Part shown: positions 1-15,305 of the stretch, piece after piece
How the letters are laid out: every line of letters begins with the position of its first letter
Numbering within the stretch: the stretch's first letter is position 1
Source of the DNA: a virus
Strand: one strand, 5' to 3'
DNA length: 16,995 nucleotides
UHGV virus genome: UHGV-1578121
The notes under the pieces: model-generated
What the model was told of the DNA's origin: nothing
Database searches by the model: none
What the model saw: the letters and a program-made list of their open reading frames with translations, nothing else
Translations under genes and position numbers: made by a program

Positions 1-113
1 GCGGCGAAATGGCTCACGATATGGCGCATGTAATCAGCATGGTTGATGTTCAGTAGTGCGAACTTATCCGCCGTGTCGATGTACCGGACGGCAGGTTTGA
101 GGATGTCAGGCAT
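1..113 (-). CDS. partial CDS (N-terminus only, continues past window start); hypothetical protein
   Basis: ATG at 113 on minus strand, reads MPDILKPAVRYIDTADKFALLNINHADYMRHIVSHFAA and stays open to the window edge; start overlaps the stop of the upstream gene by 8 nt (operon-style coupling). Confidence 0.35.
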   Translation of the reverse strand, partial: MPDILKPAVRYIDTADKFALLNINHADYMRHIVSHFA

Positions 114-843
114 GTTCACGTTCTCCCAGGCGACGGGCCAGCCAGCGTTGGGCTAATTCGGTGAGACGTTCTTTACGTTCTGGCGTTGGCATATCCATAT
201 CCAGTAGCGCACAGTTACGGCTTTCCAGATACGCGAGCAACGCCAGTTGATCAGCGGTTATATGGTCACGAACTTTTTTTGATGGGATGCCGTTTTTTTT
301 GGCCCATACAGGCGGGTGCATCCCTAATACAAGGCGCGCAATGAAAGTACATTCGTTGTTATAAGCATGACCGTGTTGAGTGTCTCCAGTACGCTCTATG
401 TATCCCTTCATGGCATCCCCCATAGAGCGCATCTCAGCTTTGGCCTCACATCTCTCTGCTATCCAGTTAGCCATGCGGTTAAACTGCGCAATGTATGCCT
501 CTTTGAATGCAGCCGCTTTTTTTCCGGTAAATCCCATTGTTAAAAACACGAAGCCGTCTTTGGTGACTTCGTAGGCTCTCAATACGCGCCCCTTATGCTC
601 AAATTTAACCCGCCGAAAATTGCGGGTTAAAAATTCAGCAGAACAACACAGGTTTTCAATCCGGTTAACAACCTTATCGTGATCCTTTCTGAAAAATCGG
701 GCGATAGCCTGTGAAGTGGTTACAGGCTCACCGCCAGAAGGAAACACTTCCGGCGCAGTGAGTGCATTTTTATTTATTCCGTCAGCAATAATCTCATTGC
801 CGGAAATTACCGAAATAATTGCGGCGAAATCATAATTACGCAT
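106..843 (-). CDS. phage regulatory protein, Rha-like N-terminal domain (245 aa)
   Basis: Provided ORF; N-terminal segment VTTSQAIARFFRKDHDKVVNRIENL...GRVLRAYEVTKDGFVFLTMGFTGKKAAAFKEAYIAQFNRM matches the recalled Rha-domain pattern; overlaps upstream gene by 8 nt. Confidence 0.5.
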   Translation of the reverse strand: MRNYDFAAIISVISGNEIIADGINKNALTAPEVFPSGGEPVTTSQAIARFFRKDHDKVVNRIENLCCSAEFLTRNFRRVKFEHKGRVLRAYEVTKDGFVFLTMGFTGKKAAAFKEAYIAQFNRMANWIAERCEAKAEMRSMGDAMKGYIERTGDTQHGHAYNNECTFIARLVLGMHPPVWAKKNGIPSKKVRDHITADQLALLAYLESRNCALLDMDMPTPERKERLTELAQRWLARRLGEREHA

Positions 844-1351
844 GATTCACCCCCAGAGACGGCGCTGACGTCATCAGGCTGGCGAACGTCTCCATGCGGC
901 GAGCAACTTCCCGCACCGCTTCGGTCGGTGTCATGCCGTTCTGTATCGCCTCGTTAAAAGCCGATATCCCGATTTCTTGTACAACTGACAACAAATGAAA
1001 GCGGTGTTTTGTTTCGTCCTGCTTGAGGTGGCGCATATGTTCTGGGTTACGACCGCGAACAATGCGTAACAAGTAATCATGTTGCATTTCATTCAGCATA
1101 TAGCGCATTTCTGGGCGACCGCGCTTATGGCCTGATTTCAGACTATAGCGAGGCAATGCTCCCAGATCGCGTAACTGCTGCTGATGTTTTTTGATCGTCG
1201 CGCAAAGACTTTCGTGTTGTATTCCTGCTCGCTCAGAAATAACGCGGGAATCAATACGCGACTCTGCTTTGTGGCGAATCAATATATCGTTCTGGTTGAT
1301 TTCAGGCTGAACGAAGCCCTGCCCCTGTACGGGCATATTCGGACGTTTCAT
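836..1351 (-). CDS. hypothetical phage regulatory protein (171 aa), possibly Rha/antirepressor-related
   Basis: Provided ORF in the same operon as alpA and the Rha-like gene; basic protein with an RVISERAGIQHESL...GRPEMRYMLNEMQ segment loosely resembling the Rha pattern. Confidence 0.4.
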   Translation of the reverse strand: MKRPNMPVQGQGFVQPEINQNDILIRHKAESRIDSRVISERAGIQHESLCATIKKHQQQLRDLGALPRYSLKSGHKRGRPEMRYMLNEMQHDYLLRIVRGRNPEHMRHLKQDETKHRFHLLSVVQEIGISAFNEAIQNGMTPTEAVREVARRMETFASLMTSAPSLGVNHA

Positions 1352-1415
1352 TGAAAACTCCTGCTATCGGATCAGGTTTAGTGCTGGGGGAGAATATCCC
1401 CCTCCCAAAAGATTA

Positions 1416-1619
1416 TTACGCGGCGTTGTTGCGAGAAGCATCAATACGCTGGTTAATCCATTCGTCGACTTCACTTTCAATAAAAGCCACGGAGCGGGGA
1501 CCAATTTTTACCGGTTTAGGGAAGCGCCCCAGGCTGATCAGGCGATAAATCCATGCGCGACCGTAACCAGTACGGCGCATAACCTCAGAAAGACGGATGA
1601 ATGAATTGTTATTAGCCAT
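1416..1619 (-). CDS. alpA: AlpA-family phage transcriptional regulator / excisionase-like HTH protein (67 aa)
   Basis: Translation MANNNSFIRLSEVMRRTGYGRAWIYRLISLGRFPKPVKIGPRSVAFIESEVDEWINQR shows the hallmark IRL..V...TG......IY.......FP.P...G.RSV.W.E.EVDEWI pattern of AlpA/CP4-57 regulators; sits downstream of a P4-type integrase. Confidence 0.8.
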   Translation of the reverse strand: MANNNSFIRLSEVMRRTGYGRAWIYRLISLGRFPKPVKIGPRSVAFIESEVDEWINQRIDASRNNAA

Positions 1620-1707
1620 TTATCAATCTCCTTAATGTTGACGCGGAAATCCCCTCCTGTGGCTTAGCAAGAGTTTTATTTGCGTCAAATTACGAACACG
1701 ACAAAAA

Positions 1708-1731
1708 CCACAACATGAAAACATGTTGTGG
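1708..1731. promoter_or_regulatory. perfect palindrome CCACAACATG-AAAA-CATGTTGTGG, candidate operator upstream of alpA
   Basis: 10-bp perfect inverted arms with 4-bp spacer read directly from the sequence, about 90 bp upstream of the alpA start on the minus strand. Confidence 0.4.
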
Positions 1732-2261
1732 TATTGCATAAGATAAATTCAGATTGTTTGGTTGGTATGCTCCAGCAAGGTAGAGCTATTCCCGCTTTCG
1801 GCGGGGTCACACGATTAGGCGTGACGTCCAGTAGTTTTAAAGAGCGCTTTTTCAGTACATGGTGGACGGACAAGAGAGCAATTGCGCTTTGTCAGCGCCG
1901 TAGATTCATATTTGAATCGTTGTATGTTTCCCGATAGCAAATCTATCGGTCACTGCGGGACGAACCATCCCGCCGCATCAATGTTAAAGATCAACAGCAC
2001 TTTGCCAGCGCTCCACCGCCTCATGGATGAATCATTACATGCTTTGTAATAGTGCATGTATCACCATTCTTTCCTGCATCAGGAAAGCACTAAAGGCTGT
2101 TAAAGAGCATCCAGCTTTTCAGCTGCGTAGAAAACTCAATCTTCGTTGTTACAAAGAGCGCCCATACATGACGGATAACTGCGTGAAAAACCCTCTGTAA
2201 GGATGTTAGCTGTAGCTTTCCGTGTACGTTAGCATACATCTGTATACTTGTCCAGTCGTTT

Positions 2262-3476
2262 TTATGCACATACACTAAACTTGCCGTGCACCACGTTTCC
2301 GCCCTGTTCCAGTGAGTCCATATAGTCGGCGTACCACTGGAGCATCTCCCGCCGTCCGTCCAGATATTGCGCGTGATTGTATGTGCCACGGATCGAGTTT
2401 TTATCGACGTGCGCCAGCTGCGTTTCTATCCACGCGGAGTTATAACCCTGCTCATGCAAAATTGTACTCATGGTATGCCGGAACCCATGACCAGTAACGC
2501 GCCCAGCATAGCCAATACGACGAATAAGCACGTTCATCGCCATTTCACTCATCGGTTTACTGTGCTGTATTCGACCAGGGAAAATAAACGGATACTGCCC
2601 CGTCATGTGTTTCAGTTGTTCCAGAATAGCAATCGCCTGTTCTGAAAGCGGCACGCAATGAGGACGGCGCATTTTCATTCGTTCTTTCGGCACTTCCCAC
2701 AGACGATTATCAAAATCAATCTCCTGCCACTCTGCCTGCCGCAATTCACCCGGACGGAGTCCTGTAAGAATCAACAATCGCATACCCAGCTTGACGATCT
2801 GGCTTCCGGTGTACGTATTAAAAACGCGGAAAAATTCCGGTAGCTCATCAACTTTCAGATACGCGTAATGCTCTTTTTTGTGTGGTGCAAATGCGCTTGC
2901 CAGATCAGGAGCGGGGTTATATTCAGCGCGTCCGGTAATTATTGCGTACCGAAACACTTCGCCACATCGCTGGCGAACCTTACGCAATTTTTCAGTTGCG
3001 CCACGGTCATTAAGACGGGATAGAACCGCGAGCAATTCCATCGGCTTAATCTCTGCGATGGGCCTACCTCCAATGTACGGAAAAACGTCTTTTTCAAACG
3101 TCTCTATCATTTCCTCTGCATATGAGGGAGACCATCGGTCCAGGCGTTTTTCATACCACTCACGGGCGATCACCTCAAAGGTGTTACCGCATTTGTTCGC
3201 CTGTTCTCGCTTTTGGGCCTTTCTGACCTCACTCGGATTAACTCCACCAGCGATAAGCCTTTTGGCTTCATCCCTTGCCGTCCTGGCATCAGAAAGGGAC
3301 ACCTCAGGATAGACACCCAGCGACAACATTTTGGGCTTGCCTGCAAACCTGTATCGCAATCGCCAGCCCTTCGAACCGTTCGGCTCAATGAGTAACGAAA
3401 GCCCGTTGCCGTCATTGAGTGTATAGGCTTTCTCTTTTGGCTTCGCGCGGCGGATAGCAAGGTCTGAAAGCAACAT
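2262..3476 (-). CDS. int: P4-type tyrosine integrase (site-specific recombinase)
   Basis: Translation begins MLLSDLAIRRAKPKEKAYTLNDGNGLSLLIEPNGSKGWRLRYRFAGKPK (classic P4-integrase N-terminus) and ends with catalytic motifs HGFRHT...LAHVDKNSIRGTYNHAQY; start placed at the internal ATG 3476 (GGGGG upstream) rather than ORF-track 3515, which has no RBS. Confidence 0.9.
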   Translation of the reverse strand: MLLSDLAIRRAKPKEKAYTLNDGNGLSLLIEPNGSKGWRLRYRFAGKPKMLSLGVYPEVSLSDARTARDEAKRLIAGGVNPSEVRKAQKREQANKCGNTFEVIAREWYEKRLDRWSPSYAEEMIETFEKDVFPYIGGRPIAEIKPMELLAVLSRLNDRGATEKLRKVRQRCGEVFRYAIITGRAEYNPAPDLASAFAPHKKEHYAYLKVDELPEFFRVFNTYTGSQIVKLGMRLLILTGLRPGELRQAEWQEIDFDNRLWEVPKERMKMRRPHCVPLSEQAIAILEQLKHMTGQYPFIFPGRIQHSKPMSEMAMNVLIRRIGYAGRVTGHGFRHTMSTILHEQGYNSAWIETQLAHVDKNSIRGTYNHAQYLDGRREMLQWYADYMDSLEQGGNVVHGKFSVCA

Positions 3477-3533
3477 GTGTATAGCCCCCAAAAAACGATT
3501 TTGTCCTATACGCATTACTATACACTTCTGTGT

Positions 3534-9992: not shown

Positions 9993-10297
9993 TGGTTAAC
10001 CTTATCGATTAGTTCTGCTATGAGTGGTTGAAGATCAGCTACCGCTTGTTGCATGATTTCAGTGGTGTCATTGATCACGATAATCAGGTTACTCAGATCA
10101 TCAGCTTCAACCTGTGCACCTTCGGATTGTTCGCACGCTGCAATAAGTAGTTGCAATGCTTCCCGCGTCGATTCCAGATTAATAACCGCCTGTGTGATGG
10201 TCAGTTCGCTTGGATATTCCATCGCTGCGTTAACTGCTTTCTGCAAGTCAATAACAAGGTCCATCATTTGGATAGTTACGTTGTGTACTTCGCTCAT
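9989..10297 (-). CDS. hypothetical highly acidic alpha-helical protein (102 aa)
   Basis: Provided ORF; strongly acidic composition (many D/E, few K/R); start overlaps stop of the upstream 70-aa ORF by 1 nt. Confidence 0.55.
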   Translation of the reverse strand: MSEVHNVTIQMMDLVIDLQKAVNAAMEYPSELTITQAVINLESTREALQLLIAACEQSEGAQVEADDLSNLIIVINDTTEIMQQAVADLQPLIAELIDKVNQ

Positions 10298-12535: not shown

Positions 12536-13404
12536 AAAAACTCCTTATTTAGATAAAAGAAAAACACACCTTGCAGCCTAACGGCTCAAAGTGCAGTGTT
12601 CTGTGATTTGATTATTTAGATGGAGAGAGATGTTTCTCCCCTCCCTACTTACAATACTACATAACGGCGGCTTTGTCAACCCTCTTTTATAAAAAATTTG
12701 ATCATTTTCAATTTCTTATAATTTTTCTTAGCTTTTTGTGCTGCCTACTCTGGTACAATTCTTCCCTGTTGTCTAAAACGCTCTCAATCGCACTCTGACG
12801 GGGTTTTGATAAAAATAATACATTCCCTTATGTAGAGGTTGTTTATCTCGTCAGAGGCTTATTTAAGGGGCTTATTTTTGATTTATCAGATGATGGAAAG
12901 ATGGTGGATAGATAAACTCTGATTTCAGACATCTTATAAAATACCTGCAAAGTTCTCAGAAGCTCTGTAACGAGCTAATCTATTACCGCTAAGGTGTTTC
13001 CCTTACATTACCCTGTTTAGCTCGCCTACGGCTTGATTTAAGCGGTAGAATCTTATTTAACCTTCAACTACAAAAACCATTCTTTCTTTTTTGTTGTTGG
13101 TTGTTTTGTCATGTTATGCGTTAGCATCCCCAAAGGGTAACGCGACACTAACAACCATTCGCTTACGCTCAGGTTATTGCACAAGTAAATTTCAATCGTT
13201 AGATGGTAGTTAGTTAATTATCGTTCTGCGCACAGCGCAAGACTATTAGCCATACGCAAGTCGTAGGCTATTTGCACATAGTAGATTACATATTCGTTGT
13301 GAGCGGAAAGCGAACATAGATCAGCTAACTACTAACAAAAAACAAAAAACAAAAACTATCTGTTATGACAAGCATCAGTCTAACTTGTGCAAGGTTCTGG
13401 CGAA

Positions 13405-13473
13405 TGCCAATAGATTAAGGGATAGTCGAAGACTCCCTAACGGGTATCCCTATAATTATTCTTTAAAAGATAA
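13405..13473. repeat. copy 1 of a ~70-bp direct repeat containing a nested hairpin (AGGGATA...TATCCCT) and a TATAAT hexamer
   Basis: tgccaatagattaagggatagtcgaagactccctaacgggtatccctataattattctttaaaagataa read directly; near-identical copy at 13588-13657. Confidence 0.7.
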
Positions 13474-13518
13474 AAGAATTTATAAAAGATAGTTTAATTG
13501 TAGTTTAATTATAGTATT

Positions 13519-13571
13519 GTAGGAACTCATTTCCTGGGTAGGTAGGAACTCATTTCCTGGGTAGGTAGGAA
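13519..13571. repeat. 23-bp tandem repeat x2.3 (gtaggaactcatttcctgggtag), each unit with internal palindrome AGGAA-ctcat-TTCCT
   Basis: Read directly; lies between the two copies of the 70-bp direct repeat. Confidence 0.7.
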
Positions 13572-13587
13572 ACCCGCACTATACGAT

Positions 13588-13657
13588 TGCCAATAGATTA
13601 AGGGATAGTCGAAGACTCCCCTAACGGGTATCCCTATAATTATTCTTTAAAAGATAA
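13588..13657. repeat. copy 2 of the ~70-bp direct repeat (one extra C relative to copy 1)
   Basis: tgccaatagattaagggatagtcgaagactcccctaacgggtatccctataattattctttaaaagataa read directly. Confidence 0.7.
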
Positions 13658-14334
13658 TTATAGTTAGTTGTTAGTTTTATTATTAGTATTATTAAAGTAA
13701 TCTTATTGTCAGTCATCGTGACCGACACCCCCCCACACAACATCTGTGCAATGATCTTCTAAAAGTGTTTCTTGCTATCAAAAATTAAAAAAACAGGCTT
13801 AAATTCAAGATTAATTGATGATTAATCCCTATGTAATTCCATACTAAAAATTCAATGAAAAGTAGATTCAAAGTGCAATTCTTACTTTCTTCACTTTTAC
13901 ATTATCATCAGCAAAGCCTTATGTAATGCGGCATATAGCGTATCACTGCAAAATTGTTGCTCAATAAACGTTCTACCATTTGTTGAACGAATGTTCACTC
14001 GTGCACATCTCAAAGAGAATAATTATTTATCATACAATTCCATAATAAGAATTATTATCACTTATAATGCAATACAACCCAGATTCGATACACTTTAGCA
14101 AAGTGTATTCTGTAACCTACTGATCTTTATATACTCAGGCATATATAGACCATTTATCGCTATTTATTGGCTTTTTTTCATCTGCCGAAAATAAATTTCT
14201 TGACAAGACAGATCATTTGTGAGCGGCTTGCATAAAATAAATTTACTTATAAATCAACAAGATATTTCATATTTGTGCCTGCATCAGATCGGGAGGCTTG
14301 ATCTTTGTGTTCAACGATGGTGACGGACGCACCT

Positions 14335-14420
14335 AAATTAAATCGGTTTTAATCGCCTTTAATACCTTTTAATCAGTCTTAATCACCTTTTAATAGCCCT
14401 TTAATCATTTTTGATCATTT
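14335..14420. promoter_or_regulatory. array of eight TTTTAATC-like repeats phased at 10-11 bp (helical repeat): candidate curved DNA / iteron / protein-binding array upstream of the short recombinase gene
   Basis: aatcggtttt aatcgccttt aatacctttt aatcagtctt aatcaccttt taatagccct ttaatcattt ttgatcattt read directly with near-constant 10-bp period. Confidence 0.6.
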
Positions 14421-14517
14421 AGTGCTCTCAACCATAAAACGTATCGTGCAACATATTGAAAATGATCATTTTATGATCAAAACTACTTTCATTGAAACGA
14501 ATAAGGAGAGTATAAAG

Positions 14518-15096
14518 ATGAAAGGTATTAGCCAAGCCCTCAAGAATGTAGACGAGGTAAAAACAGTAGCAGCAGAGCTACAGCGCAATAGTAAAACCAA
14601 CCTGTTTTATTGCTTATGGGTGTTTATGTATGAAAGCGGGTTGCGTGTCTCTGACGTACTCAAGCTAAAATATCAGGATGTTGAGGGGCAATCTCATTTG
14701 AAGATAAAGCAGGAGAAAACCGGAAACGTAGTAAGGCCAAAAGTTACCCCCGCCATGTTGTCAGTGGTGGCACAACGCAAGGCAGAGCAAACGAAGATGC
14801 CTGTAGCTACAGATTTTATTTTCAGTGCTGGCACATTACGCAGTAAAGGCGAAGCCGTAACCCGTAACACGGTATTCACTGAATTTGGGAAGATGGGACG
14901 TAGAGCCGGATTCTCTAATGTGGGATGCCATACGCCACGTAAAAGTCGGGGCCGTGTGATGTTTGATGCAGGGGTAGCTATAGAGACAATAGCCCATTTC
15001 CTGGGACAGACAGATCCGCGCTCTACTATGTATTACATCGGGTATGGTCAGGATGTGCAGGACGATTTAGCAGAGGAGTTTTCTTTAGAATGGTGA
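14518..15096 (+). CDS. short tyrosine recombinase, catalytic domain only, FimB/FimE-like (192 aa)
   Basis: Start moved to ATG 14518, which has AAGGAG 8 nt upstream (ORF-track start 14422 has none); motifs LFYCLWVFMYESGLRVSDVLKLKYQDV (box I Arg), CHTPRKSRGR (H-x-x-R) and LGQTDPRSTMYY (catalytic Tyr); size typical of invertase-type recombinases. Confidence 0.75.
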   Translation: MKGISQALKNVDEVKTVAAELQRNSKTNLFYCLWVFMYESGLRVSDVLKLKYQDVEGQSHLKIKQEKTGNVVRPKVTPAMLSVVAQRKAEQTKMPVATDFIFSAGTLRSKGEAVTRNTVFTEFGKMGRRAGFSNVGCHTPRKSRGRVMFDAGVAIETIAHFLGQTDPRSTMYYIGYGQDVQDDLAEEFSLEW

Positions 15097-15305
15097 TCCA
15101 AATTAAAAGCTTATTTGTGCTGACGTTGGCGCTATTGCCTGTCCTATCGAATGCCGGACAGATAACAATGGTCAACCCACAGGAAGAACAGACGGAGAAT
15201 GGAAAAACGCTGTGCACGTATCAGAACAGCAATTATCTGTTCACTTACGTAACTAAGGGGAAATGCCCTTATGCAAAAACATTTGACACTTCCGCCAAAG
15301 AATAA
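15090..15305 (+). CDS. small secreted protein (71 aa precursor) with predicted signal peptide and two Cys in the mature part
   Basis: N-terminus MVIQIKSLFVLTLALLPVLSNA followed by GQ looks like a Sec signal peptide with AxA-type cleavage site; ATG overlaps the recombinase stop (ATGGTGA), suggesting coupling. Confidence 0.45.
   Translation: MVIQIKSLFVLTLALLPVLSNAGQITMVNPQEEQTENGKTLCTYQNSNYLFTYVTKGKCPYAKTFDTSAKE

Follow-up and report, generated by a model that had tools for sequence, protein, structure and literature searches.

Eight T-rich repeats follow one another at intervals of about one helical turn upstream of a short recombinase gene in the UHGV virus genome UHGV-1578121, and the locus raises the question of how such an array arose and what, if anything, it does there. 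The window, that is, the whole stretch of 16,995 nucleotides that was analysed, is a phage-satellite-like island of the E. coli chromosome. The array (14337-14418, plus strand) consists of eight units of 10-11 bp in the same orientation, built around a core TTTAATC that is followed by a variable 3' spacer. In order, the units read ATTAAATCGG, TTTTAATCGC, CTTTAATACC, TTTTAATCAG(T), TCTTAATCAC(C), TTTTAATAGC(C), CTTTAATCAT and TTTTGATCAT. Their AAT[C/A] cores start at 14341, 14351, 14361, 14371, 14381, 14392 and 14403, and the corresponding GATC of the last unit at 14413, with spacings of 10, 10, 10, 10, 11, 11 and 10 bp. The eight repeats that the initial annotation had placed at 14335-14420 with such spacings are present, although its single word common to all eight units was an overstatement. 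The exact sequence TTTTAATC occurs only at 14347 and 14367; four units (TCTTAATC, TTTTAATA, CTTTAATC, TTTTGATC) differ from it by one base and two (ATTAAATC, CTTTAATA) by two bases.

The phasing of the array lies far beyond chance. Six TTAAT cores form a chain with steps of 10-11 bp, against a longest chance chain of 2 in 300 dinucleotide-preserving shuffles of the window and of 3 in 1000 AT-rich intergenic shuffles. Tandem Repeats Finder describes the array with a period of 10 (5.7 copies, 63% matches), but a period of 20 scores better (2.9 copies, 79% matches), and the array is therefore to be read as ~3.5 copies of a two-box unit, which implies growth by that unit. No ORF of at least 20 aa crosses the array on either strand, and no second array, defined as at least three phased TTAAT cores, occurs elsewhere in the window or in the whole island of E. 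coli strain MJ-T. The array is a genuine, statistically robust and lineage-specific phased repeat, of a general kind that is already known.

The genetic setting is provided by strain MJ-T, to which the segment 12500-15100 is 100% identical. In this strain the island measures ~13.7 kb and lies between an integrase gene and tRNA-Gly, adjoining the ETT2 locus. The island gene products include a 406-aa integrase, a lambda-E-like major capsid protein, a 613-aa protein that matches tape-measure families, a 221-aa Rep-like/O-like protein (WP_001075361.1) with weak matches to replication initiators, and several small unknown proteins. The array occupies the right end of a 1.9-kb ORF-free region (12536-14517), flanked on one side by a leftward operon, whose first and second genes encode proteins of 60 and 58 aa, and on the other by a rightward two-gene operon. 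The left part of this region (12536-13990, ~1.45 kb) contains neither an ORF nor any annotation; its relatives, at 60-100% identity, are found in 746 of 5426 complete E. coli genomes (~14%), and every genomic match falls on unannotated sequence. Directly left of the island's own integrase, the window carries two Rha-family regulator genes and a P4-type 417-aa integrase gene (together 106-3515, the latter at 2262-3515 on the minus strand), where MJ-T has a glycoside hydrolase gene and ETT2, and the island therefore appears in tandem with another integrative element. Nothing specific to this island family was found in the literature, and no DNA similar to the region was found in the phage collection.

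The short recombinase (14518-15096, plus strand) is a tyrosine recombinase of 192 aa that comprises the catalytic domain only (PF00589, E=8e-16) and has no extra DNA-binding domain. It is collinear with FimB and FimE, with 23-27% identity over residues 31-173, and reaches 29-31 bits where the NCBIfam cut-offs for the FimB/FimE invertases are 221-222, which places it far below them. The Arg, His-x-x-Arg and Tyr motifs are present, and near residue 160 this protein and its orthologues have FLGQTD where FimB/FimE have YLGH. Tyrosine recombinases have the His of the latter motif (or a Trp) as a conserved residue of the active site. The recombinase stop overlaps the start (ATGGTGA) of a gene for a 71-aa protein (15090-15305, plus strand; phrog_4641), which accompanies the recombinase in most orthologues. 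This protein has a signal-peptide-like N-terminus and looks exported; its mature part is variable. None of the 60-, 58- and 71-aa proteins matches a DNA-binding family in Pfam, NCBIfam or PHROG. In sister islands, which occupy the same tRNA-Gly site, the slot of the tyrosine recombinase (window 14518-15096; 11309-11860 in L011 and 10706-11257 in L012) is taken by a serine recombinase of 183 aa. This serine recombinase is about equally similar to Tn3/gamma-delta resolvases and to the Gin invertase, and its presence fits a resolution-type role for the slot.

The array does lie upstream of this gene, as had been proposed, but its supposed end at the ribosome-binding region proved wrong. The recombinase starts at the ATG at 14518, which is conserved and RefSeq-annotated and is preceded by AAGGAG at 14503-14508; the GTG at 14422 is merely the mechanical start of the open frame. 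The last unit ends 83 bp before the ribosome-binding site and 98 bp before the ATG, and the units together cover positions 98-181 bp upstream of the start. Between the array and the gene lies a promoter-like element (14456-14484, plus strand), composed of TTGAAA, 17 nt and AAAACT, the last replaced by AATGAT in orthologues. Its spacer contains two inverted boxes, ATGATCA at 14462-14468 and 14473-14479, 11 bp apart. From the first of these to the last array unit the distance is 51 bp, roughly five helical turns, and therefore all boxes face about the same side of the helix. The two GATC sequences in this spacer (14462-14479) also constitute a pair of Dam sites 11 bp apart, and the stretch that spans them, GATCATTTTATGATC, fits the degenerate Fis consensus, GNNYAWWWWWTRNNC, a match that serves as a lead only.

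A further conserved hexamer, TTGACA at 14200-14205 (plus strand), follows an A-rich tract on the other side of the array, so that the array sits between two promoter-like elements. In an orthologue, a promoter scan yields two rightward matches, TTGACA-16-AATCAT (10/12) and TTGAAA-17-AATGAT (9/12). The scan of the window reported no rightward match, as both fall below its threshold: the first hexamers are retained (the upstream one and 14456-14461), while both second hexamers are degenerate. This weakening fits dependence on an upstream element. Immediately left of the array, a small G+C hairpin is followed by TTTGTGTT (14286-14304, plus strand), and orthologues, as read by eye, appear to have a hairpin of different sequence at the same place. 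An RNA element was ruled out, since there are no Rfam matches in the region and the 291-nt leader folds no better than its shuffles (z=-0.5).

The origin of the array becomes apparent when the locus is compared with its relatives. Recombinases with 88-91% identity are found in Buttiauxella, Kluyvera, Enterobacter, Salmonella arizonae and one viral contig, and a conserved upstream 25-mer, used as a probe, recovered 28 more metagenome contigs, including modules whose recombinases are just 56-58% identical at the protein level. Across ~25 orthologous modules outside the E. coli lineage, all from other Enterobacteriaceae, the 110 bp before the ATG are conserved, and homology of the window with other genera begins exactly at 14409. 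This position is the first base of the last unit, TTTTGATCAT (14409-14418, plus strand), the ancestral distal box, which contains GATC and is kept by every orthologous module. None of the ~25 modules of the non-E. coli type has any of the other seven units. Because the last unit is universal and the other seven are confined to the E. coli lineage, the array represents an amplification of the TTTTGATCAT box. In an alignment of 31 distinct upstream regions, it takes the form of a ~75-bp insertion between GCGCAC(AC) and the conserved TTTTGATCATTT. On grounds of parsimony, the array can thus be regarded as a derived, E. coli-lineage-specific tandem amplification of the distal box by ~75 bp.

The array-bearing form occurs in 36 of the 5426 complete E. 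coli genomes, always with identical length, and in six metagenome contigs; the carriers are 97.4-100% identical over 381 bp. One E. coli genome has the array-less form, located at tRNA-Leu. Since the array is missing from every orthologous module, any function it has is an add-on. The array is needed neither for replication nor for the basic function of the recombinase. The conserved 110-bp block itself (14409-14517) is ~80% identical where the recombinase coding sequence is ~62% identical, so that conservation is higher in this non-coding block than in the gene that follows; the invariant parts of the block include ACGTATCGT and TTGAAAAT. The only other patch conserved with modules of other genera (14044-14124) encloses a perfect palindrome with a 9-bp stem, ATACACTTT-AGC-AAAGTGTAT, at 14088-14108.

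The amplification also changed the predicted shape of the DNA. Over the 96 bp from 14330 to 14425, the predicted bend is 75.8 degrees with the Bolshoy-Trifonov wedge model and 91.0 degrees with the AA-wedge model, both calculated with wedge parameters known from the literature (Bolshoy et al. 1991; AA-wedge model). Among 500 shuffles, 1.8% and 0%, respectively, reach such a bend; among window segments of equal length the shares are 0.9% and 0.1%. The proposal of intrinsically curved DNA is accordingly supported by prediction, with the array in the top 0.1-2% of window segments under both models, and the one-sided placement of the units on a single helix face holds as well. Across the whole window, local maxima of curvature coincide with the TGATCA boxes at 14474, 12695 and 14413. 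In eleven orthologues, the equivalent 96 bp have a predicted bend of 1-46 degrees and a G+C content of 45-57%, compared with 75-92 degrees and 30% for the array. The array therefore added a property that is absent from the ancestral module.

Taken together, these features suggest that the array is a curved protein-loading platform on one face of the helix, which modulates the recombinase promoter, an explanation that we prefer while regarding its chances as not quite even. According to this model, the distal box TTTTGATCAT would have been amplified in tandem within the E. coli lineage through a 20-21-bp two-box unit, which would have placed eight TTTAATC boxes one turn apart and on about the same face as the two inverted promoter boxes located 40-60 bp downstream of the array. 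The added 75 bp are AT-rich and, by prediction, strongly curved. A protein that recognises the box or prefers curved AT-rich DNA could then load cooperatively along this face and bend or wrap the DNA, and transcription of the recombinase operon might be raised or lowered as a result. Candidate binders include the recombinase itself, a Cox/Apl/Xis-like wrapping protein of the island or of a helper phage, and H-NS or Fis. Protein binding to the array, the identity of the binder and the direction of the regulatory effect are all points that we infer here. T(G/A)ATCA is common to the array units and the conserved boxes, and the recombinase might conceivably bind the units. Some orthologues have TAATCA, TTATCA or TAATAA in place of TGATCA as their promoter-proximal box, and these substitutions are the same as those that separate the array units from TGATCA.

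Whether the units have been kept by selection bears directly on the main alternative, the array as a neutral relic: copies produced by replication slippage at an AT-rich box would have drifted, and the array would do nothing and persist only because the E. coli lineage that carries it is young. This is a serious explanation, though on balance an unlikely one. It is consistent with the lack of the array in ~25 orthologous modules, including those with recombinases only 56-58% identical that nevertheless keep the flanking 110 bp, and with the period-20 structure, which points to simple tandem duplication. The high identity of the carriers fits it equally well, because recent common descent could account for both the fixed length and the low diversity of array-bearing sequences that are at least 97% alike. 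Among nine such sequences, one variable site falls in the 86-bp array, 20 in the 335-bp left flank, three in the 97 bp to the right and three in the 579-bp gene. SNP density in the array is thus about one fifth of that in the left flank (one-sided binomial ~0.05, by hand arithmetic), which speaks against neutrality, but the array is no less variable and no more conserved than the adjacent recombinase gene. Another objection arises from the uneven divergence of the units. Of 16 deviations from the column consensus, only five fall in the contiguous 7-bp core TTTAATC and 11 in the three spacer columns, a bias with P=0.004 under uniform scatter, with the choice of the best block allowed for, and 0.0005 in a star-tree decay simulation, both under the assumption that the copies decayed independently. 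The bias is also seen among the three two-box copies, where six of eight changes lie in three columns. Furthermore, the spacers are G+C-rich within an AT-rich region, and the helical phase is kept through the 11-bp units, two more points against neutrality.

Other alternatives assign the array to a different process altogether. Iterons, a role that had also been proposed, would make the units binding sites or an unwinding element of an island origin bound by the 221-aa O-like initiator. The 3.5 direct repeats of 20-21 bp, the AT-rich composition, the long ORF-free region and the replication-like module nearby all match this picture, yet the distribution among islands contradicts it and leaves it hardly credible. 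Islands that encode an identical WP_001075361.1 together with the serine recombinase (L011) lack the array, and an iteron or origin role is rejected for this reason; the array segregates with the recombinase module rather than the replication module. What is present in every locus that has WP_001075361.1 is a 23-bp tandem pair with an internal dyad (13519-13564), which is reduced to one copy at 93% protein identity and gives way to a different 22-bp repeat at 36%. A role for the array as an attP arm or packaging site was likewise discarded, as the tRNA-Gly end is ~2.5-3 kb away and sister islands with the same kind of capsid and integrase genes do without the array.

The repeats of the ORF-free region deserve a description of their own. 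The segment 13519-13571 contains a perfect 23-bp tandem repeat, GTAGGAACTCATTTCCTGGGTAG, in 2.3 copies with an internal dyad, and is flanked by two copies of a ~75-bp element (13401-13473 and 13584-13657) that are 97-100% identical. The 23-bp pair and these flanking copies form a candidate replication origin. In L012, which encodes a divergent initiator-like protein, positions 10117-10190 hold three copies of a 22-bp repeat, GTGACCTACCCCCTAGCTCACA, and the corresponding part of the window (~13707-13735) has one degenerate copy.

A role in recombination is more difficult to dismiss, although it too is improbable. In this alternative the units are accessory, architectural sites of a recombination site used by the adjacent recombinase, comparable to DR1-DR2 of the Tn4430 IRS, and would impose the geometry of the synapse for multimer resolution or inversion. 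The location directly upstream of the recombinase gene agrees with it, as do the length of the conserved block, ~110 bp beside the 116 bp of the IRS, and the Ser/Tyr swap in the sister islands, which is the same as that seen in Tn3-family resolution systems (PMC2847244). The higher conservation of the upstream block than of the coding sequence points in the same direction, and the recombinase is the sole DNA-binding protein that always accompanies the boxes. The absence of the array from orthologues would be tolerated, given that the accessory motifs of the IRS are dispensable. Against this, the aligned upstream sequences, examined by eye, contain no inverted pair of boxes 4-8 bp apart in the conserved block; ~40 bp separate the forward box (14409-14418) from the inverted ones (14462-14479), and the recombinase has no additional DNA-binding domain. 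Recombination products were not found either: no inverted junction was detected in array-bearing E. coli genomes, no minus-strand rearrangement among 12 loci, and no deletion between the direct copies of TTTGATCATTT (12697 and 14410), the one truncated locus being due to an IS1 deletion. The suggestion of recombinase accessory sites in the initial annotation thus holds as far as the array adjoins a recombinase gene, and is weakened by the ~25 orthologous modules without an array and by the missing core and products.

The inversion variant of this explanation has its own structural basis. An inverted copy (17/19) of 14450-14468 (AACATATTGAAAATGATCA) is found at 12699-12717 on the minus strand, upstream of the gene that opens the leftward operon and encodes the 60-aa protein, and the two arms, which share the core TGATCATTTTCAA, bracket a 1.73-kb ORF-free region. 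Homologues of the 60-aa protein are accompanied by the left arm down to 33% identity. Islands with a serine recombinase have this arm too, and it looks like a shared promoter or operator element. Complete E. coli genomes were searched with a chimeric query that represented the inverted left junction, and none of them covers it. There are no minus-strand HSPs among related loci, and all genomes and contigs show a single orientation. An invertible segment was rejected on these results.

A bolder form of the preferred model would treat the boxes as the sensor platform of an undescribed enterobacterial family of satellite-like islands, on which a helper Cox/Apl-like protein or the recombinase polymerises and switches the operon, possibly together with an orientation or excision switch of the 1.7-kb segment within the 17/19 repeat. 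This combined proposal is highly speculative and quite improbable; were it true, helper infection would be coupled to DNA rearrangement in a satellite. If the platform is functional in the simpler sense, a mobile element has rewired the control of its recombinase by amplifying one existing operator box, and a helically phased curved array has arisen within a single host lineage. Should it instead be neutral, the array offers a clean example of the birth of a minisatellite at a regulatory box. In either case it is a compact 75-bp handle for experiments on an uncharacterised island family. The wider context, namely the conserved 110-bp block, the Ser/Tyr replacement and the large conserved non-coding region, probably outweighs the array in importance, and the array itself merits less attention than the island family around it.

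Several known systems resemble the locus in part. The Tn4430 IRS carries tandem, dispensable TnpI-binding motifs that flank an IR1-IR2 core upstream of a tyrosine recombinase, and in related elements its function is performed by serine recombinases, as in the sister islands (PMC2847244). In sites of this type the accessory motifs have sequence in common with the motifs of the core. Like the array, the IRS has tandem motifs of the same orientation beside the recombinase gene, within a site of ~110-120 bp; it differs in having two motifs and an inverted core, whereas the array has eight motifs, no recognisable core and no recombination products. TnpI, at 284 aa, is also longer than the island recombinase with its 192 aa. 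Salmonella virulence plasmids would offer another analogy in their crs/rsd resolution locus, with a tyrosine resolvase downstream of eight direct repeats. This analogy was not borne out, since Tandem Repeats Finder detected no such array on pSLT upstream of rsdB, and the two proteins are not related. The fim switch shares with the island a recombinase of ~190-200 aa, a long regulatory intergenic region and a bracketing inverted repeat. The island recombinase nevertheless fails the cut-offs of the invertase family (30 bits vs 221-222), both orientations would be expected of a switch while the island segment has one orientation only, and the left arm of the island repeat also belongs to islands with a serine recombinase.

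Curved DNA built from phased A/T-tracts provides a broader comparison. Curved upstream DNA of this kind is a preferred target of H-NS and Fis. The array has the corresponding T2-T5 runs every 10-11 bp, G+C-richer spacers and a promoter-like element downstream. In contrast to such tracts, each of its T-runs is followed by a TpA step, its curvature is a prediction, and its conservation takes in AATC beyond the T-run, more than curvature alone would call for. A scan of viral contigs for phased TTTAAT returned unspecific AT-rich matches, including many GVMAG contigs.

A close parallel is found in the operator arrays of Cox, Apl and Xis proteins. P2 Cox and 186 Apl bind at least six direct repeats placed every 10-11 bp, bend the DNA and control promoters, and the PLL promoter of satellite P4 is activated by Cox through such boxes (PMC3936717; PMC7498355). 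The P2 cox-boxes are located at Pe-Pc, at attP and upstream of P4 PLL, with the consensus TTAAA(G/C)NC(A/C) (PMC3936717). The array likewise places a short AT-rich box at each helical turn over ~70-80 bp beside a promoter, and its eight units agree with the three or more, usually 5-7, phased direct repeats of these operators. The boxes of P4 PLL, CTTTAAGTGG, CTTTAAATGA and CTTTAAGTGG, can be set against the array units CTTTAATACC and CTTTAATCAT. With the P2 cox-box the array shares the TTAAA core only: on the minus strand, its units match 7, 5, 4, 5, 7 and 6 of the eight specified positions, and positions 6, 8 and 9 do no better than chance, so a P2 Cox binding site was ruled out. Arrays of this type usually go with a small winged-helix or HTH protein of the same element, as a rule the product of the first early-operon gene. 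No Cox/Apl/Xis-like gene was recognised in the island, and the second array expected at an att site is lacking. The array resembles the Cox/Apl operator arrays functionally, in its layout beside a promoter, without being a member of the group.
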